Shown here piece by piece: positions 1,451-29,519 of a DNA stretch of 35,293 nt. The notes below the pieces were generated by a model. The model did no database searches. It had not been told where the DNA came from and saw nothing but the letters and a program-made list of their open reading frames with translations. Position numbers and translations under genes: made by a program. The stretch lies in the IMG/VR virus record IMGVR_UViG_2778261341_000005, one strand, 5' to 3'. This DNA comes from a virus (Duplodnaviria > Heunggongvirae > Uroviricota > Caudoviricetes). How positions within the stretch are numbered: position 1 is the first letter of the stretch; every line of letters begins with the position of its first letter.

Positions 1451-1533
1451 TTGTGACTTTTGTGTGAGGGTGCGACTTTCGACCGAACCTTTGGCAACCG
1501 GATAGCGGGGGCTTTCACCCCCGCTGCGGTTTC

Positions 1534-1674
1534 TTACGGTTTACACTGCAAGAACGCCGCAAATTCTGACCACATGATGTTAAGTCTGAACTCACACGGA
1601 GAACGGTGTATCATCCAGACGGTCAACAACATGGTTAAGCATAAAATGCTCACGATGATCGTTTTTTGCGGCAT
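1534..1674 (-). CDS. Hok/Gef-family type I toxin, copy 1 (46 aa)
   Basis: Minus-strand ATG with AAGGAG Shine-Dalgarno; product MPQKTIIVSILCLTMLLTVWMIHRSPCEFRLNIMWSEFAAFLQCKP: one TM helix then a C-E-F-R ... E-F-A-A-F block as in Hok/Gef. Six substitutions relative to copy 2 without frame disruption. Below the 60-aa track threshold. Confidence 0.7.
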   Translation of the reverse strand: MPQKTIIVSILCLTMLLTVWMIHRSPCEFRLNIMWSEFAAFLQCKP

Positions 1675-1715
1675 AGCGCTTGACTCCTTTTACAGGGAGG
1701 CGCTAACCTTCCACT

Positions 1716-1775
1716 TGTCTAGGGTAGGAAGGGTTAGGCCTCGGGTTAAACAAATGTTTTACTCGGGGCCTTTCC
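1716..1775 (+). ncRNA. putative Sok-like antisense RNA, unit 1 (boundaries approximate)
   Basis: Plus-strand TTGACT (1680-1685) and TAACCT (1704-1709) promoter-like hexamers antisense to the hok leader, then ggccucggg ... cucggggcc hairpin plus UUU. Confidence 0.3.
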
Positions 1776-1891
1776 ACATCCGGCCTTCAGGTATTCCTTC
1801 CAGCCGTCAGCCGAAAGGCACCCGCATGTAATTTACTGATTTCCCTTTGTGTGCGCAATGCTCAGTATTGAAGCTGTTGAGGGGAGACGGC

Positions 1892-1916
1892 AAAAAAAAG
1901 CCCGCATATTGCGGGC
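1892..1916 (-). terminator. intrinsic terminator ending the hok unit-2 transcript
   Basis: gcccgca-tat-tgcgggc hairpin preceded on the plus strand by A8, i.e. followed by U8 on the minus strand. Confidence 0.55.
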
Positions 1917-2006
1917 AATGAAGTCAGTACGCTAACCCAAAAGGGTGCCATATCAGCCGAACCCGGCAACCGGATAGCGGGGGGCTTTCACCCCCGCTGC
2001 GGTTTC

Positions 2007-2147
2007 TTACTGTTTACACTGCAAGAACGCCGCAAATTCTGACCACATGATGTTAAGCCTGAACTCACACGGTGAGTTGTGTATCATCCAGACAATCATC
2101 AAAATAGTTATGCATAAAATGCTCACTATGATCGTTTTTTGCGGCAT
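2007..2147 (-). CDS. Hok/Gef-family type I toxin, copy 2 (46 aa)
   Basis: Translated codon by codon from the sequence: MPQKTIIVSILCITILMIVWMIHNSPCEFRLNIMWSEFAAFLQCKQ; AAGGAG 10 nt upstream of ATG; TAA stop at 2007-2009. Confidence 0.72.
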   Translation of the reverse strand: MPQKTIIVSILCITILMIVWMIHNSPCEFRLNIMWSEFAAFLQCKQ

Positions 2148-2188
2148 AGCGCTTGACTCCTTTTACAGGGAGGCGCTAACCTTCCACT

Positions 2189-2248
2189 TGCTTAGGGTAG
2201 ATGGTCAGGGCCTCGGGTTAACATTAAAGTTGACTCCGGGGCCTTTCC
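2189..2248 (+). ncRNA. putative Sok-like antisense RNA, unit 2 (boundaries approximate)
   Basis: TTGACT 2153-2158, TAACCT 2177-2182; hairpin 2209-2243 (ggccucgg / ccggggcc with a G-U pair) followed by UUUCC. Confidence 0.3.
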
Positions 2249-2364
2249 ACATCCGGCCTTCAGGTATTCCTTCCAGTCGTCAGCCGAAAGGCACCCGCAT
2301 GTAATTTACTGATTTCCCTTTGTGTGCGCAATGCTCAGTATTGAAGCTGTTGAGGGGAGACGGC

Positions 2365-2389
2365 AAAAAAAAGCCCGCATATTGCGGGC
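2365..2389 (-). terminator. intrinsic terminator ending the hok unit-3 transcript
   Basis: Identical hairpin plus A8/T8 tract, 473 bp from the unit-2 copy. Confidence 0.55.
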
Positions 2390-2479
2390 AATGAAGTCAG
2401 TACGCTAACCCAAAAGGGTGCCATATCAGCCGAACCCGGCAACCGGATAGCGGGGGGCTTTCACCCCCGCTGCGGTTTC

Positions 2480-2620
2480 TTACTGTTTACACTGCAAGAA
2501 CGCCGCAAATTCTGACCACATGATGTTAAGCCTGAACTCACACGGTGAGTTGTGTATCATCCAGACAATCATCAAAATAGTTATGCATAAAATGCTCACT
2601 ATGATCGTTTTTTGCGGCAT
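2480..2620 (-). CDS. Hok/Gef-family type I toxin, copy 3 (46 aa)
   Basis: Nucleotide-identical to copy 2 over the ORF (shifted by 473 bp). Its upstream promoter differs from copies 1-2 but keeps TTGCAC-N17-TAAATT on the minus strand (~2776-2806). Confidence 0.68.
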   Translation of the reverse strand: MPQKTIIVSILCITILMIVWMIHNSPCEFRLNIMWSEFAAFLQCKQ

Positions 2621-2661
2621 AGCGCTTGACTCCTTTTACAGGGAGGCGCTAACCTTCCACT

Positions 2662-2718
2662 TGTCAGGTAGGAAGTGTCAGGGCCTCGGGTTAACGTTAG
2701 TTGACTCGGGGCCTTTTC
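2662..2718 (+). ncRNA. putative Sok-like antisense RNA, unit 3 (boundaries approximate)
   Basis: Same promoter hexamers as unit 2 shifted by 473 bp; hairpin 2682-2713 with a different, shorter loop than units 1-2. Confidence 0.28.
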
Positions 2719-2775
2719 ACATCCGGCCTTCAGGTATTCCTTCCAGCCGTCAGCCGAAAGGCACCCGCGCGTAAT

Positions 2776-3440
2776 TTACCTTTTACGTCCGTTACGTGCA
2801 ACGGATGACGTGGCTGTTTTTCCTTCCCCTTCGCCATCCTTTTTCGGAGCAGTTGTGCAAAAGTGTGCAAAAGTGATTTTTGCTGCCACTCCCCGCCAGG
2901 CCGCGCCAGTTCTGGCTTTCCTGATTTTTTCGTTTTCGTCGTCGGATCCTTTTTCAGATCTTCGATCGTGACGTAATTTTAAAAATCTCTTGTTATTCAG
3001 TGCATTAAATTTTTTCGGGATCCTCAGAAAGCCGGAGTTTTTGCACACTTTTGCAAAACCTTGCACAAAGTGCAAAACCATTCAGAAGGGAAAACCTCAG
3101 TAATGGCGCGCCCTGGCGGGGTGTTTTGCACCCATTTCGATTTGCAAAATTTATCGTACACAAATACCGGAGGCGTGTGCGGGGTAGCGCCGATTACGTC
3201 ACTTTACGCGTTACGTCGCCCCCGAAAATTTCCGGCCATTTGCGGCGATTCTGGGGCGCAGAAATCGTTTTCTGATGTCAGGGGATCGAATCGGGCCGGC
3301 GGGGTTATCTCTTCGTTACGTGGCGTTACGTGACGTTTTACGCGGGGATTACGTGGGGCGTTTCGTCCATCTTTTTTTCTGCTGCGGGTGGTTTTTTCGT
3401 GGTGGGTGATGTCCGGTGATGAATATTTTTTATTGTCGTG
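2776..3440. promoter_or_regulatory. non-coding block with operator-like and iteron-like repeat arrays (function unknown; possible att or regulatory region)
   Basis: No convincing ORF. Inverted copies of tgcaaaagtgtgcaaaa at ~2861-2884 and ~3040-3060 flank an AT-rich GATC-containing spacer; palindrome TTGCACaaaGTGCAA at 3061-3075; further TTGCA half-sites at ~3124 and ~3141. Direct (c)gTTACGTg repeats cluster at 2786-2806, 3193-3220 and 3314-3356. Confidence 0.35.
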
Positions 3441-3446
3441 GGAATA

Positions 3447-3476
3447 AAAAAGGCCACATTGCGCGGCCTGTTAAAA
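3447..3476 (-). terminator. intrinsic terminator at the end of the late/tail operon
   Basis: Minus-strand ggccgcgcaatgtggcc hairpin followed by ttttttatt, immediately after the stop of the 557-aa gene. Confidence 0.55.
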
Positions 3477-3483
3477 TGAATAA

Positions 3484-5157
3484 CTATTCGATTATTGGTG
3501 AATATTTATTTTTAAGCTGGCGGCACTCCTGAGCGACCTGGCTGAACTGTGCGGCCTGCGGAGACGTGCCCGTTTTGGGGTGGGTATGTGATGCTGTAAT
3601 ATCTGCCAGCTCTTCCACCACATCGGCAAGGTCCGTCAGCATGGTCAGTACATTAATGCCCTCGTTTCCCAGCTTCACCGTATCGCCAACCAGCTTCTGC
3701 GCCAGCGCAATACTGTGACGGACGCCCTTAATCTTTTCGGTAAGGCTGCCGCCCACGGTGTCCTGGGTGTCGCCTTCCACGTCGCGCTCACAGGTACCGG
3801 CAACCACCATCATGTGCCCGCCCGTGCTGATGCTGTAGTTCTCTTCAGTGATATGGGTGACCGCGCCAGCCTGAAGCGTGGATACGCCCAGGACGGTGGT
3901 TGTGTCGGTTGCCTGTATGGTGGTCTCCCGGCTGGTCAGGCTCCGCTTTTCCTCGTCTGCACTCACCACGCGCTCGCGTGATGTCTCCTGTATCCGCTGG
4001 TCTGTCTGGCGCTCCCAGTCTCCGGCGACCGTCACGCGCTGCGATACGCCGTCGCGCTGTTGCTGCAACTGCTCGCCCGGCTTCACGTCGGGCAGATTGT
4101 GGCCCTCTGCCATTATCTGGCGGATGAAGGGCTTATCCGCCCGGCCTTCCACAAATCCCACTTCCACCAGGGTTCCGGGCGGCGGGAACTGGAACATGCC
4201 GGACTCACTGCCCGCCATGGGAACGGGGAGGGGAACGGCGTTATAAACGGGCGTATCCGCTGCCGGGTTGCCGTTCTCGTCAAGCAGCTGGAGATTCACC
4301 GCGTAGCGGGGTCTGAACGGGTCGGCAATATTGCCCGCGCTGACGGCTTCGGTCGGCGCCTCAACACGTGCCAGTTTGGGCAGGTGAAGCCCTGATGCCA
4401 GTTCAGGGAAGGCCTTTTCAGCCTGGCGACGGAAAGGGGACTTCTGGAGGGGGGCGCCGGTGGCTTTATTGCGTGGTGTCCACGTGATGGTCATGTTGTC
4501 ATCTTCCAGCATGACCATCGTCAGGCGCTGACCGTTCACCTCCACACCCGGTCGCAGCGTCGGAATCATCGGGAGGGTCATACTGTGCCCGCCCGTTGAT
4601 GCCTGGCTGAACTCGTGCGGGATGGTGACGGGGCGACCGGAAAACATCCCCTGCGCGGCAGCAGCGGCCATAATGCCGCCGTCCGGTAACGGATGCCAGA
4701 TGTAATCCGGTACGGAGAAAATACGCCCCAGACTGGCCAGCAGTTCGTAGCCCGTGCCGCTGTGTGTGAAATGCGGAACGGGTCTGTCAGTGTAAGCCGC
4801 GTTGTCCGGCAGGATGATTTCCAGCCCGCTGGCCTCACTCAGCCACTGTGTGACCGTGCGCATTGTCGGGTGCTGAAATGAACAGGGGAAGGGGTGATCA
4901 AGGATCCCCGCCATTTCACGAATCAGAAGCCGCACCGAGCCGTTTTCAGCGGGCTGGCTGCGTTCAACGTATCCGGTAAACCAGCGCACCAGGTCGTTTC
5001 CGTATCCGATATCGAGACGAACGGGGCGCCCGGTGTAGTTCTGCTCTGTTCTGGCCGTGATAAATCCGCGTCCGCACGCGTTCAGCTCAAGCATGACGGA
5101 ACAACTGACCAGCTGAATGGTGTCGTTACCCAGTAACAGACGTTTAGTGGGGTTCAT
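3484..5157 (-). CDS. baseplate hub / central spike protein (gpV-like OB-fold; possibly a gpD-gpV, VgrG-like fusion)
   Basis: 557 aa; mid-protein segment VPLPVPMAGSESGMFQFPPPGTLVEVGFVEGRADKPFI resembles the gp5/gpV/VgrG OB-fold motif; C-terminal SHTHP near the tip (His-x-His apex as in spike proteins); last gene of the tail operon. Confidence 0.5.
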   Translation of the reverse strand: MNPTKRLLLGNDTIQLVSCSVMLELNACGRGFITARTEQNYTGRPVRLDIGYGNDLVRWFTGYVERSQPAENGSVRLLIREMAGILDHPFPCSFQHPTMRTVTQWLSEASGLEIILPDNAAYTDRPVPHFTHSGTGYELLASLGRIFSVPDYIWHPLPDGGIMAAAAAQGMFSGRPVTIPHEFSQASTGGHSMTLPMIPTLRPGVEVNGQRLTMVMLEDDNMTITWTPRNKATGAPLQKSPFRRQAEKAFPELASGLHLPKLARVEAPTEAVSAGNIADPFRPRYAVNLQLLDENGNPAADTPVYNAVPLPVPMAGSESGMFQFPPPGTLVEVGFVEGRADKPFIRQIMAEGHNLPDVKPGEQLQQQRDGVSQRVTVAGDWERQTDQRIQETSRERVVSADEEKRSLTSRETTIQATDTTTVLGVSTLQAGAVTHITEENYSISTGGHMMVVAGTCERDVEGDTQDTVGGSLTEKIKGVRHSIALAQKLVGDTVKLGNEGINVLTMLTDLADVVEELADITASHTHPKTGTSPQAAQFSQVAQECRQLKNKYSPIIE

Positions 5158-5159
5158 GG

Positions 5160-5702
5160 TTACTCCAGCGCATCATTGACGGGTTTGAGGACCTTTTCTT
5201 CGAACCAGGTCATTTTCTCCGGTGTTTCGTCGGCCACGGTCCCGCCTTTTGCGCCGGGCGTCTGCGGTGTCTGTTTACGGCTGCTGCCGGGGGTGGCGCG
5301 TGCCTGGCGTTTTTCCGGTACGCTTCGTCTTTCGCGTAATGTGAAGCTGACCTGCCAGGCGAGGCGGTCGGTCTGCTGCTGTGCGTCTATCTGCCCGGAG
5401 AATGTCCCTTCACGAAAGTTAATGGCGGCAGCGGTGGCGTTTGCGATACGGTAAACTTTCAGGGCACCGTCCCCGGTGGTGGCAGAGGCCAGCTGGAAAA
5501 TGCGCTGAAGGGCCCGCTCATTGTCAAAGGTGATCATCCCGGTTACGCGAAGCTCTTTGGCCTTGATGCCCTGCTCGGCGTTCGCGGTGCTCGATGTCTG
5601 ACCGGACTGGTCCTTTTCCTGGAACTGCATCGAGGGCGAAATAACCATGTTCTGCATGAAAATACCCTCACCATCAAGGGCGAGCAGTGCGGTCTGGCTC
5701 AT
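5160..5702 (-). CDS. hypothetical protein in tail operon (180 aa)
   Basis: Translationally coupled between the 241-aa gene and the spike gene; no motif recognised. Confidence 0.35.
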   Translation of the reverse strand: MSQTALLALDGEGIFMQNMVISPSMQFQEKDQSGQTSSTANAEQGIKAKELRVTGMITFDNERALQRIFQLASATTGDGALKVYRIANATAAAINFREGTFSGQIDAQQQTDRLAWQVSFTLRERRSVPEKRQARATPGSSRKQTPQTPGAKGGTVADETPEKMTWFEEKVLKPVNDALE

Positions 5703-6399
5703 GGATCATTTTCCCCAGTTCAGTTAATGAGTCTGCCGCCAGGAGTGCGGCCACAGTATGTACGGCGGTCGGTGCCGGGATATCCTTCACCATGGCCGCC
5801 GCTGCGGCGCGGTGATACCCCCGGTACTGAAATACCCAGGCCTGCGCCTTCTGTTCTGCCAGTGTTCTGATCCCCTCTTCCAGTCCGGCAAGTGCGCCAG
5901 CCCGTCTGCTGATAAAGCGGCTTATCTGGCGGCGAAGCCCTGCGGCATCCGGGCGTTGTGCTGCCAGCTGCCTGGCCTGTGCTGCACGGGCGGCGCTGAC
6001 TGCGTTGCGCATTGTGGCAACGGAAAGATGCACAGGTGCGGGCAGGGTGTCGGTGGTGATCGGGATTTGCATTTTGTCAGTGCTCAGACTGGCGGCAGCC
6101 TGTGCCATGCGCTGTGCCTGCGTGAATACCGGCACGGGCAGAACGGCGGTCAGTGCCGCCATTGACTGTATAAAAAGATCGTGGGTGTTTTCGGCAATCA
6201 TGATAATGGTCACGTCGCCGGATGCACGGCTTCCGGCCATTTTCCCGGCCAGCCAGTTTATGGCGTTCGGAGGGCTTAAATATACCCCCGATTCTTCATA
6301 TCGTCCCAGCCCGTAAGTCCACGGTGTGACGGGGATGACGGAACAGCTCAGCGGGGGCATGTCAGCGCTGACGCTGATTGTTTTTCTTGTCCACGTCAT
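5674..6399 (-). CDS. hypothetical protein in tail operon (241 aa, Ala-rich)
   Basis: GGAGG Shine-Dalgarno 5 nt upstream of ATG at 6399; starts 11 nt after the fibre-assembly stop; no motif recognised. Confidence 0.35.
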   Translation of the reverse strand: MTWTRKTISVSADMPPLSCSVIPVTPWTYGLGRYEESGVYLSPPNAINWLAGKMAGSRASGDVTIIMIAENTHDLFIQSMAALTAVLPVPVFTQAQRMAQAAASLSTDKMQIPITTDTLPAPVHLSVATMRNAVSAARAAQARQLAAQRPDAAGLRRQISRFISRRAGALAGLEEGIRTLAEQKAQAWVFQYRGYHRAAAAAMVKDIPAPTAVHTVAALLAADSLTELGKMIHEPDRTARP

Positions 6400-6410: not shown

Positions 6411-7007
6411 TCAGCCTGCGTGATGATCCGGCGAAGGAGATTCAGGCCAGACAATATCCGGCGCGTTGCCCGTGTCTGTCCGGTTCAGTAATACCCGGTA
6501 TTTTTTCCACAGGGGAAGCAGGGCGCTTTCATCGTCGGTCGCCATATTTAAATCCACGGCATCCTGGAGGATGTTTATTGTATTTGTTGCTTCCTGTATT
6601 AATTCCCGTTTTTTGTTCTCCGCCTCGCTCACCCGGTAAGCCTGTTCTGCTGCTTCATCCTTAACCCATGATGAACCATCCCACCGGCAGAACTCCCCGT
6701 CCGGTTTTATTATGGTCACGTTTTCCGGTAACGGGCCCGGCTCAGTAATCAGTAAGGCGCTTCCCGACTCCAGACGCCAGACGGTTTTACCCCGGTGATC
6801 TTCCATGAGGTGCCAGGTGTTTTCATCCTCATCAAAGATAGCCACGTGTCCTTCAGGAATGTCAGGCGGGGCAATGTCCGTTGAGTGCGCAGGCAGTCCG
6901 GTATGCGGAGGGATCCATGCATCGCCTTCGCCGATAAATTCATTTGTTCCGGCTGACAGGTTGTAGATTTTAATTGTCTGCGGGTGTTCGCTCATTTTAA
7001 AGGTCAT
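6411..7007 (-). CDS. tail fibre assembly protein (gpG / Tfa-like chaperone)
   Basis: 198 aa immediately downstream of the fibre gene; N-terminal pattern (IKIYNLSAG...WIPP...[17 protein letters not shown]) typical of tail fibre assembly proteins. Confidence 0.7.
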
Positions 7008-9067
7008 TATGCAAGCCTCACGATGTAGTTAAATGCGATGTTTTTAACGGTGTTTTCGGCATTACCGGTGGGGTTAATGGTCAGGCCGTGACCATGTGAA
7101 CCCAGTGCGATCGTGTGGGCGTGTTCGCCAATGCCTACAGGGTGCGTGTGTGCCGGAAAGTTAACCGTCAGGCTTGCCCCTGAACCCGGCCCGTATGCGG
7201 TCCAGTCACCGCTGCCTTCCGGTGACGCGGTGGCGGTTCTCAGTGCTATGCTTGCAGAGCCTGAACCCGCGCTTCCTGTTGTTTTTGTGCCGTAATTGAA
7301 GGATGAGGTCGTTTTCGTGCCAAGGTTAGTGTTTGAGACGCTCCCCCCGTGGGTGTGGGATTTGATACCGTCCTGCTCCTGTGACAATACCGCACGACCG
7401 CTGGCGGGTTTCCCCTTGATTGTCCAGCCGCGCATATCCGGGATGCGACCGTCCGGACAGGCTTTTGCCAGCAGGGGGTATTGCGCTTTATCGAATGTCT
7501 GCCCCACCATGATGGCGTAACCGTCAGGCGGGGTGTCTGACGGCCACGGAAAAGGAATACCAGCCGGTAATGCCTCAGTTGCAGGCAGTGCGCCGATGTC
7601 CTGTGGTGTGGGTTTGTTTTTATCCGTGTAAGTGCGGTACCAGGTGGTTTTTCTTCCCCGATCCAGTATCACCCCGGTAAATTGTGCCCGGTGTTCTTTT
7701 GTGGCCGGATCTGAATCTTCCAGACCTGTGGTGATCCTGACTATTCCACCGATGAGTTCGCCAAACACTTCAATCAGGCAGCCACCCAGGCAGATATCGC
7801 CATACCCCGTGTCAGTAAGCACGCTGTGCTGTGACAGTGAAATATTGGCCCTTAATACCCAGCTCCCCGTTCTGAATGCACCGCGCTCATTCAGCCATTC
7901 CACGAACTGTTCTGTTGTCCAGCGTTGCCCTGCTTTACCCACGTATCCGTCAGCATCATAAACCCGGGGAGCACCGATGTTGATAATAAACAATTCCTTG
8001 TTGGGGATGTCCTCACCATTGCGGTTTTTCGCAAGCCGACCATCGGCGTTGTCCATGGCGATCTTTATCGCTTTTGGCGTGGCTGCCTGTGTTTCTGATG
8101 TACTGGTGGTGGCGCTGCTTAACTGTGTGAAGCCCTTTTCTTTCAGCGTTGCGTCCGGGTGATTACGTGATCTCTCGTGTTTTTTCAGGGCGTCCAGACT
8201 GCGGCGCTCTTCCGGGGTTCCTCTGGGGCGGAGGTCAGTCACGTTGCCGTCTTCATCAATTTCAGCGATGGCACAAAAATATTGCTGAATGCCGTCCCTC
8301 GGATACGTTTTCCGTAAACGCTCTTCCGTAACGTCCGGGTCGGCTGTTATGATTTCGTGCTCTGTCGCCCATTCACTGGTGAGCGTGCCGGTCCACCACA
8401 CATTCAGCCAGATACGGGACGGGGAGGTGGGCGTGACCATTGGTGTGTCTTCGGTCAGCTCTGCGCGTAGCCCCTCCACGTAACCCACCCCTTTGTTGAC
8501 TGTCCAGGTTTCGCCTTTCTTAACCAGCCACCCGTCATCAAAAAAAGTTGCCTTCCCGTAGATATCGACGTTTTCGCGGCGCTGGCGTTCGTCCATGGAT
8601 GCCAGGCGTGCCGTGAAGTCTATCTGCCAGGTCTGCGCCGGGGTGGTGATACCAGTGGCTTCTTTCGCACCGCTGTACTCCATGAGCATGGAACGAACCA
8701 GCACATTACCTTCGTTACCGTTGTGGGTTCTGATTTTTTTCTGTGTGGGTGCATGAACAATCATGGCCAGCGTGCTGGTTGCTTTGCTGACCAGTCCCAC
8801 CCAGTTAAATTCAAAATCACCCAGCTCTGCCCCCAGGGTGACCGAATAAACCACGGCATTCTCATTCACCACGCCGGTTTTACCAACGGCCTGGCGGTGA
8901 ACAATCTGATCTTCAGGCGGCAGGATTTCGTCGGGGGATACCGGCGTTTCCAGGTTGAGGTCCGGGACGTTTGCAAAAATAAACTCATCCAGCACAACGG
9001 GGGTGCCTTCCACCGCCTGCTGTGCCTTGAGCCGGATAAAGGCGCTGGTAATTACAGATTTCGCCAT
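7007..9067 (-). CDS. tail fibre protein (gpH-like)
   Basis: 686 aa; contains [35 protein letters not shown], closely matching the conserved motif of P2 H and related fibres; C-terminal Gly/Ser/His-rich domain with repeated HxH. Confidence 0.85.
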
Positions 9068-9089: not shown

Positions 9090-9638
9090 TCACTCTGCCC
9101 TGGCCGTCCAGCAGATATACTCCCCTTCGTATGCGCCATAATGGATGATGAAGGGGTTAAGGGTTTCCACCTCAAAACGGTAACGGCGGCATGTCCTGCC
9201 ATATTTGCGGATGATCTCCAGAAGAAGATCGCTGTTGTCGGCTATCTGGCTGTCTGTCACCCGCACCAGGATCACATCCCAGTCCACGCCGGGCTGGCGC
9301 TCGAGTAACTCCACGTAGCCGATGCCCAGCCGTTCAAAAATGGCGATAAAGCCCGCCACCTCGCCAGCCTCCTGTGCATTGATGAAGGCGTAACTGATGC
9401 GGCGGCGGTAGATCTCCGTGGGTTCCCCTTTAAAGCGGGTGATGTCCCGCTCCCATGCCAGCAAATCAAGTACAGGCTCTGCACATGTCATGGGGTCAAA
9501 CTGGCGCACGGGCCAGGTGATCCATTCCCATACGCGGGACCAGAAAGCCTGCGCGGCCCGCAGCAGTTTGTCGGGTTCCCCCCTGTCCATCCAGGAGGGC
9601 AGTTTCAGCGAGCGAAGCCGCTGCAAAAAGTTATTCAA
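9090..9638 (-). CDS. baseplate protein (P2 gpI-like)
   Basis: 182 aa directly upstream of the fibre gene; W..P..C...L.LLAW motif pattern of the P2 tail protein I family. Confidence 0.6.
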   Translation of the reverse strand: MNNFLQRLRSLKLPSWMDRGEPDKLLRAAQAFWSRVWEWITWPVRQFDPMTCAEPVLDLLAWERDITRFKGEPTEIYRRRISYAFINAQEAGEVAGFIAIFERLGIGYVELLERQPGVDWDVILVRVTDSQIADNSDLLLEIIRKYGRTCRRYRFEVETLNPFIIHYGAYEGEYICWTARAE

Positions 9639-10815
9639 TGACCACCTCCACTGTCAGGGATTCGAGCCGTGGCACGGCCAGATCGCTGATGATGTCTTCC
9701 AGTGAAAACTGAACCGAAGCCACCATCGGGAAGGTCTGATGAATTTCCTTGCCCAGCGTGGAAAACGAAAAGCGCGAATAGGGCCAGACTTTTTTCACGT
9801 TAAAGCGGGCGTTCTCCCTGAAAGCGCAGCGTATCAGGTCGTCGATATCCTGTTTCAGCCCTTCCGCGCCGTCCGGTGGCAGGGTGGTTGAACTTCTGAT
9901 GTATACGGTGACCTCCAGACGGTGACGCGTCTCCGGCATGGCGAAACACTGCAAATCATCCCCGTGTCCGTGGTGCCCCTCTTCGTTGATGTAGCGGTTG
10001 ACTGCTTCAATGAAAGGGGCAGAGGCCTCGCCGCTGTCCAGTAACAGGTAGGCGTTGGCCGTTCCCGGTCCTCTCGGGGCGTCGTGCTGAAAGTAGATCC
10101 GGTCGATGCTCAGGCCCGCCACGCTGGCAATAAGTCCCCGGTAGACGGCGTCCGTGTGGTAACTGCTCACGAGGTTAAACTGGTTGCGTATTCTGTCGCG
10201 CAGTTCGTCGTCGCTTTCCTCATCGGCACCCGGTACGGTCAGCCAGTCCTCCCGGTTCACCACGGATGCAATGCCGGGAATGGCAACGGGAAGGATACGG
10301 AAGTACCCCGGCGCGAGGTTGTGCCCGCTGCCTTCGGTGGTGGCTTCCACGGGAACGGATGCGCCGCTTTTACCGCTGCTGATAAGCGTTTCCTCCGTGA
10401 CGGCCATGCTGTGTATCACGCCGTTGATTCTGGCGGTCTGGACGATGGTCCCTTCGGGGATGAGGACGTCATCATTTGCCCTGGTTTTGGCAAACCAGAT
10501 CACGCCACGGGCCTTACTGGCCGGTTTTGGGGTGATGTTGACGTCGTGCGCATGAAGCAGAAGAAGTGACCGGTCAGCCGTGGCGACAAACATACCGGGC
10601 AGCACAACGTCAACCAGTGCATCACGCAGCCACTGAACGGGTCGTATGACAATGGTCAGAATGAGCCGCCAGAAGGGACTCATGGGCGAGGTGTTGGTGA
10701 TGAGTCCGGTTTTCTGTACATCCTCATGAAAGAGGGTGGCGATCTCTTCTTCTGTTTCCGGCATACCGCTTTCACGGAATACCTGATTAAAATCAACGTC
10801 CGGTTTCCCTTTCAT
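9631..10815 (-). CDS. baseplate protein (gpJ-like)
   Basis: 394 aa; position between the gp25-like and gpI-like genes as in P2 W-J-I; size-compatible. Confidence 0.5.
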   Translation of the reverse strand: MKGKPDVDFNQVFRESGMPETEEEIATLFHEDVQKTGLITNTSPMSPFWRLILTIVIRPVQWLRDALVDVVLPGMFVATADRSLLLLHAHDVNITPKPASKARGVIWFAKTRANDDVLIPEGTIVQTARINGVIHSMAVTEETLISSGKSGASVPVEATTEGSGHNLAPGYFRILPVAIPGIASVVNREDWLTVPGADEESDDELRDRIRNQFNLVSSYHTDAVYRGLIASVAGLSIDRIYFQHDAPRGPGTANAYLLLDSGEASAPFIEAVNRYINEEGHHGHGDDLQCFAMPETRHRLEVTVYIRSSTTLPPDGAEGLKQDIDDLIRCAFRENARFNVKKVWPYSRFSFSTLGKEIHQTFPMVASVQFSLEDIISDLAVPRLESLTVEVVIE

Positions 10816-11164
10816 AGTTCACCCTGGTGTTTATGCGTCCAAAATCCTGTGTCTCTGCTGTCACATGCAGCCTGCCCGGTGCCTCTTCGTTAATGAACAC
10901 CGTCCCCGGAACCAGCCGTTCATCATCCTCAACCAGGAGGATAAGCCGGGTAATGATGTCGCTGCGCAGCGTCGGGCTGCGTTCGCCGATAAGCAGGGCG
11001 GCGATCCCGCTTTCGATAATGCTGTGCACCACGTCCTGGCCGATGCTGACCCGGTTATCACATCGCTGTGGCTCGTTTCCGCTGTTCAGCGTAAAACTGC
11101 CGTCAGTGATAAGCAGGTCGATGTAAAGCGATGGCGTGTTCATCCCGCGTAAAGCTCCGTCCAT
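10793..11164 (-). CDS. baseplate wedge protein (gp25 / gpW-like), tentative
   Basis: 123 aa; N-terminal RGMN and IGERSP (GER motif) reminiscent of gp25-like proteins; overlaps tape-measure 3' end and gpJ-like 5' end. Confidence 0.4.
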   Translation of the reverse strand: MDGALRGMNTPSLYIDLLITDGSFTLNSGNEPQRCDNRVSIGQDVVHSIIESGIAALLIGERSPTLRSDIITRLILLVEDDERLVPGTVFINEEAPGRLHVTAETQDFGRINTRVNYERETGR

Positions 11165-13326
11165 TCATCCAGTTGCCCCGGCGTCATCGGGTTCTGCGTG
11201 TTGATTGTCAGATTGCCGAACGTCCGGCTGTTGTCGATACGGGTTGAGGTGTCCGTGCGTATCTGGTTGCGTATGCCTCCGGGTGGCAGCTCTGCGCTGA
11301 TGCGGTTGCCTGCCAGTGCCGGGACGGCGGTTTCTGCAATCTGCGGAGGTACGGTGCTGCCCGTTGCGCCCCGCGTCATGGTGTTCACCTGCTCCGTGGG
11401 CTTCATGTCGATACTGATACCGGGGATTTTGTTCAGCTTTTCCGCAAGCCAGTTCCACGTCCGGTTAAACGAGTTTTTAATGACGTTCCATAAGTCCCCG
11501 AAAACGTTACCGATGATCCCCGCCATTTTCCGGAAGGATTCGACCGGGGCGGTCGGGTCAAATGCAGCCACCACGTCCTGCCACCCTCTGATGACGATGG
11601 TGAAGATGTCGATCAGGTCTCTTATTGCGCCGATCACCATTTCCAGCGGGGTAGAAATCAGGCTGACTGCGGCGGCCACCAGGCGTCCGCATGTTTCCCC
11701 GGCACGGGTGACGCTGTTCATCTGTCCCGTGGTCAGCTGTACCGGTGTAAACAGATCGGAGAAGGCACCGAACAGGGTTTTTATGCCCTGCCATACCGGG
11801 GCCAGCGCCCGTGCAATGTCGCCGAACGCGGCAGTCACCGGGCTCATGGCGTCCAGTGCGCCGGTAAAACCATCAATAAAGCCGCGAATAAAGGCTTTGA
11901 TGGGCTGCCAGAACTTAATGGCTACCACCACCAGAGCGGCGATGGCGGCAACAACCAGGAGGACCGGGGCGCCCATGGTCAGAAACGACACGCCCGCCAG
12001 ACGCGCGGCAAGACTGGTGGCAATGATGACGCTGCGTACTTTTGTGAGTGCGAGCGTGTACAGACCCCAGGCTGCCCTGGCGCCCTTTATGATGGCCTTA
12101 TGGCCTTCCATGATGAAGCTGAACACACCCAGCACGATGTTCGTGACCGCACCGGCTGCGCCCAGCGCCAGCATGGTCAGCGTGATGTAACCCAGCCAGC
12201 GGGCGATGTTCGGGAACATGTTCAGCCAGCGCACGAACGTCGCGCCGATATCGGCAAAACGGCCAGCCAGTGGTGCGAGAATGGGGTAGAGGGCGTTACC
12301 GATGGCGGCCCGGATGTTGTAGAAGGAGGCCACAAGGCGGTCCCACGGGTCGGTCATGGCTTCCGCCATTTCCGTGGCACGCTTCATGCCGTCATTACGC
12401 CCCAGCGCTGATATGCTCCGGTTAAGCATTTCCTGCTGTCCCCAGAGTTTTTTAATCACGTCCGCACCACTGCCGAAGGCGTCATCCAGCGCCTGTTGTG
12501 CCGCCACGTTACCCTCAATGTTCCTGCCGAACCTCGCCTGCAGACGGTCGAGGATGTCACCCATGGGTAAAATCTTCCCGGTGGCATCGACGAAACTCAT
12601 CCCCATTTTTTGTGCGGCAGCGGGGGCACTGCGCAGGAACTCCTCATAGATGCCTGATGCCTCGGTACCCATGGTCCGTGACAGGGTGCCCAGTATGGCA
12701 AACTGCTCTGCCATGCTGACGCCAAAATCCGCGCCAGCGTTTTTGGTGCCCTCAATAAGCTCCTGCATGGTGCTCATTTCCACGCCGAACTGCTGAACCA
12801 TCCACGCGGTTTTACCAGCCAGATCTTCAGCAAAACCCACGGCACCCATGGCAGAAAACTCACTGCGGAAACGGGCACCCATGGCGGCAAGGTAAGTACT
12901 CGCCTCTTCACTGCTGACGCGGGCAGCCACGGCCAGGGTACTGGTTGCTGCCGTCACACGGGGTAAATCCCCGTCGCTCAGCCCGTCCAGTGCGCCGCGA
13001 ATATGCCATGCGGAACGGATGATCTCCGTGGAAGACTGACCGAATGCGGTCCCCAGTTTCATGGCCTGCGTGGTGAGGGCGGTCAGCGCCTGCGCTCCGA
13101 CGCCTTTGGCCTCAAGCTCGCTCAGCGCCTTCTGCATCTCCCACGCCGGATCCATTGCGGCGCGGATACCTTCAGCCACACCCCACAGTCCGGCCACACC
13201 CACACCGATACGCGCGAACGCGCCCTGCGAGCGTTCGGCGAATCCCGTCACGGATTCCTGAACCTGCCGCAGCGGGCGGGTAAGCTGGTCTGTCAGATTG
13301 ATAATGAAATCCAGCTGGCTGGCCAT
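11140..13326 (-). CDS. tail tape measure protein
   Basis: 728 aa, Ala/Gly-rich with internal hydrophobic segments; preceded by a chaperone gene with a frameshift site. Confidence 0.85.
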   Translation of the reverse strand: MASQLDFIINLTDQLTRPLRQVQESVTGFAERSQGAFARIGVGVAGLWGVAEGIRAAMDPAWEMQKALSELEAKGVGAQALTALTTQAMKLGTAFGQSSTEIIRSAWHIRGALDGLSDGDLPRVTAATSTLAVAARVSSEEASTYLAAMGARFRSEFSAMGAVGFAEDLAGKTAWMVQQFGVEMSTMQELIEGTKNAGADFGVSMAEQFAILGTLSRTMGTEASGIYEEFLRSAPAAAQKMGMSFVDATGKILPMGDILDRLQARFGRNIEGNVAAQQALDDAFGSGADVIKKLWGQQEMLNRSISALGRNDGMKRATEMAEAMTDPWDRLVASFYNIRAAIGNALYPILAPLAGRFADIGATFVRWLNMFPNIARWLGYITLTMLALGAAGAVTNIVLGVFSFIMEGHKAIIKGARAAWGLYTLALTKVRSVIIATSLAARLAGVSFLTMGAPVLLVVAAIAALVVVAIKFWQPIKAFIRGFIDGFTGALDAMSPVTAAFGDIARALAPVWQGIKTLFGAFSDLFTPVQLTTGQMNSVTRAGETCGRLVAAAVSLISTPLEMVIGAIRDLIDIFTIVIRGWQDVVAAFDPTAPVESFRKMAGIIGNVFGDLWNVIKNSFNRTWNWLAEKLNKIPGISIDMKPTEQVNTMTRGATGSTVPPQIAETAVPALAGNRISAELPPGGIRNQIRTDTSTRIDNSRTFGNLTINTQNPMTPGQLDEWTELYAG

Positions 13327-29197: not shown

Positions 29198-29376
29198 GGT
29201 GTTTGGCCTCTTGTAGTAAGTTCTGAAAACTCACCATCCAGAGCTGCGAAACAGTGGGTGGCGAGACGTACGAGGTTCGCAGTACCGGCTACAAGAGATC
29301 CCGGCCCGACCGAAGTCGGCCCCGTACGCCCCGCCATAATTCTGACGCGAAAAAGACGTGGCGATACAGTACGCAC

Positions 29377-29397
29377 AAAAAAACCGCTGGCGCGGTT
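29377..29397 (-). terminator. intrinsic terminator inside the early region (putative)
   Basis: Plus strand aaaaaaa + accgctggcgcggt: read on the minus strand a GC hairpin followed by T7. Confidence 0.4.
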
Positions 29398-29519
29398 GTG
29401 CGCTCTTGTAGTCGGCAGGCTGCGAAACCCGGCACCCGTTTTATGAGGTGCAGCGGGAATGTAACCTGACTGATTGCGGCATGGCAAGCGGTTTTTTTGT
29501 GTGTGCATGTTCTGGTTTC

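Follow-up and report, generated by a model that had tools for sequence, protein, structure and literature searches.

In Haemophilus phage HP1, homologues of the P2 hub protein gpD and the P2 spike protein gpV are fused in the product of orf35 (2023 paper, PMC10612066). In P2, which also belongs to the Peduoviridae, the two are separate proteins expressed from different operons. According to the paper on the P2 Apex domain, HxH alone is conserved throughout the Apex domains of spikes and allows such a domain to be recognized, three copies of the motif caging Fe via His197 and His199. Phages Mu (gp44 and gp45) and T4 (gp27, gp5 and gp5.4) likewise distribute over separate proteins modules that follow one another in a matching order along the tail axis, and in T4 the spike protein gp5 additionally carries a lysozyme domain, while the tip is a PAAR protein of its own. 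Hub and spike are joined in one chain in the VgrG proteins of type VI secretion systems (T6SS), in Afp8 and Pvc8, and in the contractile injection system (CIS) spikes of Algoriphagus and Anabaena; VgrG-type proteins have a blunt beta-helix end that receives a separate PAAR cap.

Here, we describe a 557-aa protein encoded in a window of 35,293 nucleotides (IMG/VR record IMGVR_UViG_2778261341_000005), which is an Escherichia coli prophage inserted between dmsA and serS. Very probably, it serves as the hub-spike at the centre of the contractile tail in a temperate myophage of the HP1 type and unites hub, spike and tip in one polypeptide. This three-part architecture is typical of the HP1 orf35 family; the fusion of hub and spike is already on record, and the gene is an ordinary part of an HP1-like prophage. 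The features discussed below are collected in Table 1.

Table 1. Coordinates of the 557-aa gene, the modules of its product and the neighbouring tail genes (nucleotide positions in the window; residues are those of the 557-aa protein).
Feature	Position	Strand	Basis
Probable hub-spike-apex gene, 557 aa, stop included	3484..5157	minus	ORF list, translation, phrog_2258, HP1 synteny
Hub module, residues 1-228, gp27/Mu gp44/P2 gpD-like fold	4474..5157	minus	pLDDT about 90, Foldseek, BFVD, phrog_196
Linker, fusion junction, residues 229-242 (RNKATGAPLQKSPF)	4432..4473	minus	split relatives, pLDDT dip, phrog_4011
Spike OB-fold domain, residues 243-350 (from about 243)	4108..4431	minus	sub-threshold PF04717 and TIGR01646; VgrG profile; Foldseek
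Predicted triple-stranded beta-helix, needle shaft, residues about 351-500	3658..4107	minus	T4 gp5 profile match
Putative apex, residues 501-557: helix 503-523, HxH 524-526 (nt 3580-3588), helix 535-555	3487..3657	minus	invariance, model
Terminator-like hairpin and T-run, end of late tail operon	3451..3469	minus	consensus match only
orf34-like 180-aa baseplate protein, HP1 orf34-like	5160..5702	minus	Pfam PF25759 HP1_ORF34 'baseplate complex protein', E 5e-54
orf33-like 241-aa protein, HP1 orf33-like, probably not a hub	5674..6399	minus	phrog_1677
Fibre chaperone	6411-7007	minus	gene separate from 557-aa gene
Fibre	7007-9067	minus	gene separate from 557-aa gene
Baseplate wedge genes around hub-spike	9090..11164	minus	Pfam
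gpI-like wedge gene	9090-9638	minus	Pfam Tail_P2_I, E 4e-7
gpJ-like wedge gene	9631-10815	minus	Pfam Baseplate_J, E 1e-29
DUF2590 wedge gene	10793-11164	minus	Pfam DUF2590, E 8e-41
Tape measure protein	11140..13326	minus	phrog_28, E 9e-69; RefSeq annotation, near-identical E. coli N51 prophage

The gene corresponds to an ATG-to-TAA open reading frame of 557 codons on the minus strand at 3484-5157 (ORF list and translation). An earlier note on this DNA had assigned a 557-aa product to this position; the reading frame is real, and the strand is here corrected to minus, the plus-strand frame being broken by many stops. The start codon lies 2 nt past the stop of the upstream gene and is preceded by GGAG at 7 nt, while a GC-rich hairpin followed by a T-run stands 15 nt past the stop codon of the gene itself. 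From this arrangement on both sides it follows that the gene closes an operon, an HP1-type tail operon, which bears out its earlier description as a terminal tail gene.

The surrounding prophage is of the HP1/ESSI-2 type within the Peduoviridae and combines P2-type head genes with an HP1-type tail module. Its late operon, of P2/HP1 type, is complete (capsid, terminase, portal, sheath, tube, tape measure protein, wedge and fibre), and an integrase gene bounds it. Read along the minus strand, the order is sheath (DUF2586), tube (HP1 Orf24), lysis genes, chaperone, tape measure, DUF2590, gpJ-like, gpI-like, fibre, fibre chaperone, orf33-like, orf34-like and finally the 557-aa gene, so that the tail module from the tape measure gene to the orf35 counterpart repeats the order of HP1 orf27-orf35 gene for gene. 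The 557-aa gene is carried by 12 of 5,426 complete E. coli genomes at 96-99% identity, where it is annotated as 'hypothetical protein', the label that RefSeq also gives the protein in E. coli.

On sequence comparison, the protein is a full-length orthologue of HP1 orf35 (UniProt P51739), to which it is 38% identical over 100% of the query (tblastn). The profile phrog_2258, 'baseplate protein', covers residues 1-557 with positions 1-544 of its 544 (E 1.2e-241). Altogether, 75 phage records match the protein in tblastn, with identities of 66% for Salmonella SI7, 58% for ESSI-2-like phages, 40% for Aeromonas phiO18P, 38% for HP1/HP2 and 36% for K139; orthologues thus occur in the isolated phages HP1, HP2, K139, phiO18P, ESSI-2 and SI7. 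A megablast search of the gene against the phage collection returned nothing, the matches being found at the protein level only, and a clustered protein database yielded 1,145 clusters at E<=1e-5. Within the family, the window protein and HP1 orf35 are collinear over their full length, both are encoded by the last tail-operon gene after orf33 and orf34, and both keep an HxH motif together with its two flanking helices; nothing of substance separates them, the 557-aa protein being the E. coli orthologue.

The AlphaFold2 model of the protein, a monomer built on 57 homologues, has a mean pLDDT of 82.6, with values of about 90 for residues 1-230 and 380-440. Searched against the PDB with Foldseek, it gave full-length matches to fused hub-spikes at E-values from 3.5e-19 to 4e-13, among them the Algoriphagus CIS (7aef_q, 3.5e-19), the Anabaena CIS (7b5h_AJ, 2e-18), T6SS VgrG (9jg9, 8gra, 4mtk and 7q5p, TMq about 0.5), Pvc8 (6j0m and 9qgm) and Afp8 (6rbk), with the full-length VgrGs aligning over 570-680 columns. 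The N-terminal part also matched hub-only proteins, namely Mu gp44 (1wru, 5e-10), the 43-kDa protein of MuSo2 (3cdd, 2e-10) and the hub structures 9vzk_1 (1e-8), 8eon_E (4e-8), 6u5h_A (9e-6) and 9b45_d; hubs of P1, E217, Pa193, Bas63, phiTE and R2 pyocin are included in this group, and alignments to complete hub structures span about 300-340 columns at TMt 0.50-0.56. The C-terminal half matched the spike-only proteins Mu gp45 (9ki1_V, 6e-5), P2 gpV (3qr8, 4e-3) and the R2 pyocin spike (6e-3). Among viral predicted structures (BFVD), the matches are mostly named 'Phage protein D' or 'tail protein', the best of them being a stand-alone protein of 243 aa (TMt 0.76). Folds of the gp27/gp44 type and of the gp5/gpV type are thus both present, the outcome for which a structure prediction had been proposed as the check.

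At the level of primary sequence, the resemblance to known hubs and spikes is fainter. The P2 gpD family Phage_GPD gave no match to the protein at E<=1, and alignment of the family profile with single P2 gpD (probability 0.3%) and gpV sequences in hhalign, a comparison of low power with single-sequence templates, produced no signal; the similarity to P2 gpD is one of fold only. A profile of 30 homologues matched VgrG over positions 293-520 against VgrG 400-623 (E 1.4e-4). Weak matches to DUF6827 (E 0.02-0.15) fell below threshold and were set aside.

Since the best structural matches are VgrGs and spikes of extracellular contractile injection systems (eCIS), and some database homologues bear names such as 'VgrG1' or 'Gp5/Type VI secretion system Vgr protein OB-fold domain', one could take the protein for a VgrG from a bacterial T6SS, or for an Afp8/Pvc8-type eCIS spike, and not for a virion protein. 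The probability of this is negligible: genomic context rules it out, as the gene ends a complete P2/HP1-type late operon, has orthologues in isolated phages and has no Hcp, TssB/TssC or Afp genes nearby, and the cut-offs of the VgrG TIGRFAMs are missed as well (TIGR03361, 17.9 bits against 121.8; TIGR01646, 14 bits against 186.35), the scores amounting to about a tenth of what they require. The protein is accordingly a virion protein by context, whereas VgrG is a secretion component, and it differs from VgrG-type proteins further in carrying an HxH apex of its own in place of a cap. An assignment as tail fibre, tailspike or tail-associated lysin likewise has only a very slight probability; HxH motifs and beta-helical segments do occur in fibres, and T4 gp5 includes a lysozyme, but the prophage encodes its fibre and fibre chaperone in separate genes, no enzymatic Pfam domain was detected in the 557-aa protein, and the Foldseek matches, which rule this identity out, are to hubs and central spikes.

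The boundaries between modules rest on secondary structure, pLDDT and relatives in which the two parts are encoded separately. In Vibrio, Pseudoalteromonas and Pseudomonas relatives of the HP1 subgroup, hub and spike are split into adjacent genes, as in Vibrio phage 1.202.O (gp40 of 229 aa and gp41 of 231 aa), Pseudoalteromonas phage ACA2 (gp48, 'P2 gpD-like', and gp49, 'cell puncturing device') and Pseudomonas phage phi3 (gp34, with a hub ORF upstream lacking annotation). Each module is 35-39% identical to its counterpart there and the order is kept, the difference being that two genes lie in different frames and overlap by 10-28 nt; in addition, the spikes of Vibrio cyclitrophicus phages are shorter and have a Cys-rich end instead of the helix-HxH-helix. 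Over its whole length, the N-terminal module can be aligned with gp40 of 1.202.O, a protein in its own right, and in BLASTP the stand-alone hub stops at about window residue 226 and the spikes start at about 243. Together with the start of the spike-only profile phrog_4011 at residue 242 and a fall in pLDDT to 74-61 over residues 231-260, these relatives define an N-terminal module of about 228 residues and a linker at 229-242. An N-terminal module therefore exists, as had been claimed, at about 228 residues and not the ~300 first given to it. Its residues 25-128 match phrog_196, 'baseplate hub' (E 1.8e-5).

This module is short, at 228 aa against 387 aa for P2 gpD, and is much shorter than Mu gp44 too. 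In its predicted secondary structure, a single barrel at the N-terminus is followed by an alpha/beta insert and, at the C-terminal end, a short sheet; of the two tube-like barrels, one may be missing. On these grounds the protein could be the central spike and only part of the hub, with the orf34-like or the orf33-like protein supplying the rest of the three-fold/six-fold adaptor. The gene immediately upstream, probably translationally coupled to the 557-aa gene, encodes the conserved orf34-like 'baseplate complex protein', and in the minimal myophage Pam3 a hub with a single tube-like barrel is accompanied by a separate hexameric tube initiator. We nevertheless consider a partial hub unlikely. 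The N-terminal part aligns with complete hubs over the 300-340 columns given above, and the alignments with VgrGs extend to 570-680; moreover, every contractile tail normally includes a tube initiator as a distinct component, whose presence does not mean that the hub is incomplete.

The absence of a separate gpD-like hub gene had been noted earlier, with a search of the unassigned ORFs as its check, and this search found nothing hub-like in the prophage. Every ORF of at least 250 aa is assigned (fibre, gpJ-like, tape measure, sheath, capsid, scaffold, terminase, portal, replication endonuclease and integrase), and the two neighbours without an assigned role, of 241 and 180 aa, gave no hub signal. 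For the orf34-like protein, PDB sequence searches, including one with a 53-sequence orf34 profile, returned no match, hhalign against a single P2 gpU sequence, a comparison of low power, gave no gpU signal, and no sequence or profile link to any hub, tube or gpU protein emerged in the tests run, which also weighs against its completing the hub. It is a possible tube initiator equivalent to P2 gpU, and HP1 orf34 has been listed as an uncertain gpU homologue (PMC10612066, Table S1). The orf33-like protein returned nothing in a PDB sequence search, only 10 homologues of it were found, and it evolves fast; its AlphaFold2 model, of low confidence (pLDDT 62, mixed alpha/beta with long helices), had no Foldseek match at E<=0.001, and a hub fold is unlikely for this protein because the prediction is helix-rich. 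The interpretation as a fused, VgrG-like hub-spike is therefore supported by the full-length fold matches, the lack of any other hub gene in the prophage and the split relatives.

The spike begins with an OB-fold domain. A segment in the middle of the protein had been likened to the gp5/gpV OB-fold signature, and the motif is indeed there: FQFPPPGTLVEVGFVEGRADKPFI (FQFPPPG...KPFI) occupies residues 322-345 (nt 4123-4194), within a region that has OB-fold-type matches in Foldseek and in sub-threshold HMM searches. These last are to Pfam PF04717, Phage_base_V, at residues 310-345 (E 0.0024, 18.6 bits, below the cut-off of 23.8) and to TIGR01646, vgr_GE, at residues 313-362 (E 0.0012, below cut-off). 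Further along, the profile of 30 homologues matches the C-terminal beta-helix of T4 gp5 (4jiv, 4ku0 and 1k28) over positions 414-507 (E 9e-7 to 1e-5), a likeness in sequence between the T4 shaft and that of the window protein; the T4 lysozyme domain is absent from the latter. In the monomer model, residues from about 351 to 500 form an extended, unpaired chain, the behaviour expected of a segment whose fold requires an intertwined trimer.

Beyond the shaft, residues 523-527 (nt 3577-3591) read SHTHP. This stretch stands 30 residues from the C-terminus and contains the sole HxH among the 14 histidines of the protein. Neither H524 nor H526 varies in an alignment of 57 sequences that share 36-69% identity with the window protein, and over the last 65 residues of a 26-sequence alignment only a G, an N and the two H are invariant, from which we conclude that the motif is constrained and does not represent a chance match. 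An HxH near the C-terminus, the feature by which the P2 Apex paper identifies such domains, is thus present, in agreement with the earlier comparison of SHTHP with the metal-binding apex of membrane-piercing spikes; metal binding itself would follow by analogy. The C-terminal region had also been described as ending near SHTHP. The motif is there, although not at the extreme C-terminus, as it sits between two predicted helices, for which the monomer model gives pLDDT values of 80-89. Helix 503-523 is strongly amphipathic (its hydrophobic moment was reached by 0.15% of 2,000 shuffles), the conserved last helix of the family, 535-555, ends in K-(L/Y)-x-P-I-I, and both are common to the whole family, split members included.

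With P2 gpD and gpV the protein shares the hub fold, the OB-fold, the beta-helix and an HxH-P motif. The P2 gpV sequence HKHPGDSGGTTG, reading ...LHTHKHPGDSGGTTGSPL, has the pattern H-K-HPGDSGGTTG, with His197 and His199, and ends 12 residues after HxH, as against 30 helix-flanked residues here. One family member, P0176, carries HTHPGDSGGTTG, reading ...QHTHPGDSGGTTGKP..., in which HPGDSGGTTG follows the HxH. Of the 26 sequences in the C-terminal alignment, one, presumably P0176, reaches Pfam PF18946, 'GpV Apex motif' (E 2.9e-4); the window protein has no match to this family, and the profile of the C-terminal 65 residues found only non-significant matches in the PDB (for example influenza HA2, E 0.58).

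These observations leave some room for a different reading of the motif, in which HxH would act as a clamp for trimer register or folding, as in fibres and tailspikes, and the distal end of the spike would be a helical bundle or be capped by another protein. Such a role would fit the position of HxH between two predicted helices 30 residues from the C-terminus, the lack of an apex match among solved structures, the single family member that reaches the GpV Apex motif and the finding, in the P2 Apex paper, that the P2 Apex domain is dispensable in the laboratory. We rate it as rather improbable, however, as the motif follows the beta-helix at a position corresponding to that in gpV, one relative has the gpV apex sequence after its HxH, and the annotation of the prophage includes no gene for PAAR or any other cap (small ORFs scanned for PAAR contained none). 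If the chain reverses at HxH, moreover, the motif would still lie at the distal extremity. In our reading, the chain would turn back at the putative metal cage, and its final helix would fold against a coiled coil of three chains. Tentatively, and with the balance of probability against it, the tip could then be unlike that of every solved spike, with residues 503-523 as a coiled coil under the beta-helix, a turn that holds the HxH cage, and residues 535-555 packing back to give a six-helix-bundle apex.

Taken as the central hub-spike, the protein would be expected, by analogy with the systems described above, to form trimers, bind a metal, pierce a membrane and move on contraction as related spikes do. 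Three chains would make up the axial hub-spike, residues 1-228 closing the tube end as a trimer and forming a plug below the tube initiator (probably the orf34-like protein), while the hub modules would seat the DUF2590, J and I wedges. With so short a hub module, the ring may show only three tube-like barrels, as in Pam3, with a neighbouring protein supplying the six-fold interface. The OB-folds and the intertwined triple beta-helix would provide a rigid needle, and the three HxH motifs (H524 and H526) would enclose a metal ion in an octahedral cage of six histidines, stiffening the tip; the metal in the cage of P2 gpV is Fe, and a counterpart cage is expected by analogy. Sheath contraction would drive the needle through the outer membrane, after which it would leave the tube end and DNA would pass. 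P2 gpV moves to the periplasm on contraction (PMC12407873); in the fused protein, hub and spike, being covalently joined in one chain, would leave together, as in T6SS VgrG.

The 557-aa protein can safely be renamed baseplate hub-spike protein, and outside annotation the finding has little significance. The helix-flanked HxH is the sole mildly unusual feature and poses a small structural question for spike specialists; if the six-helix-bundle apex is true, it would be a new spike-tip variant, possibly with a role of its own in membrane insertion or plug release. From an evolutionary and mechanistic standpoint, the HP1 orf35 family shows, in a compact and naturally occurring form, all three functions of a puncturing device held by one polypeptide, and its close relatives with split genes make it a convenient system for the effects of fusion on assembly and on release after contraction.

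In the split relatives, those phages of the HP1 subgroup in which hub and spike are separate adjacent genes, the two reading frames differ and the genes overlap by 10-28 nt at all three loci (L005, L006 and L007), so what distinguishes the fused state from the split one is an indel that shifts the frame where the two modules join. The hub ORF of one such relative, Pseudomonas phage phi3, carries no annotation at all.

Elsewhere in the tail operon, the orf33-like protein, with a helical, Ala-rich C-terminal half, is evolving much faster than the products of neighbouring genes; just 10 homologues of it were found, versus >1,000 clusters for the hub-spike, and its 241 residues gave no fold match. 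The tail fibre gene is an intact ORF in the window, whereas in the near-identical prophage of E. coli N51 (L001) it is annotated as two pseudogene fragments.

Between serS and the prophage end lie three tandem repeat units of 473 bp each, with mutual identities of 91-100%; the corresponding stretch of E. coli N51 holds three Hok/Gef family toxin genes. In the early/regulatory region, adjoining Rfam matches to a C4 antisense RNA (81 bits) and the Hfq-binding sRNA isrK (65 bits) both exceed the gathering score.

Positions of the features described, by sequence
Feature	Sequence	Position	Strand	Product
orf33-like gene	window	5674-6399	-	241 aa
Tail fibre gene	window	7007-9067		686 aa
Tail fibre gene	L001	14085-16151		
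Tandem repeats	window	1507-2779		
C4 antisense RNA	window	29254-29341	-	
isrK sRNA	window	29377-29451	-	
Split hub and spike	L005	2471-4101		
Split hub and spike	L006	2474-3849		
Split hub and spike	L007	2501-4137		
Stand-alone spike gp41, Vibrio phage 1.202.O	L006	3154-3849		231 aa

The short gp41-type spike also occurs in ~10 related Vibrio cyclitrophicus phage records. These stand-alone Vibrio spikes lack the helix-HxH-helix end and have instead a Cys-rich terminus (...GKGVCTGASICPFMGKPHVDVSTTVYAGK), a replacement that suggests a different tip, possibly one binding metal through Cys/His, within the same phage subgroup.
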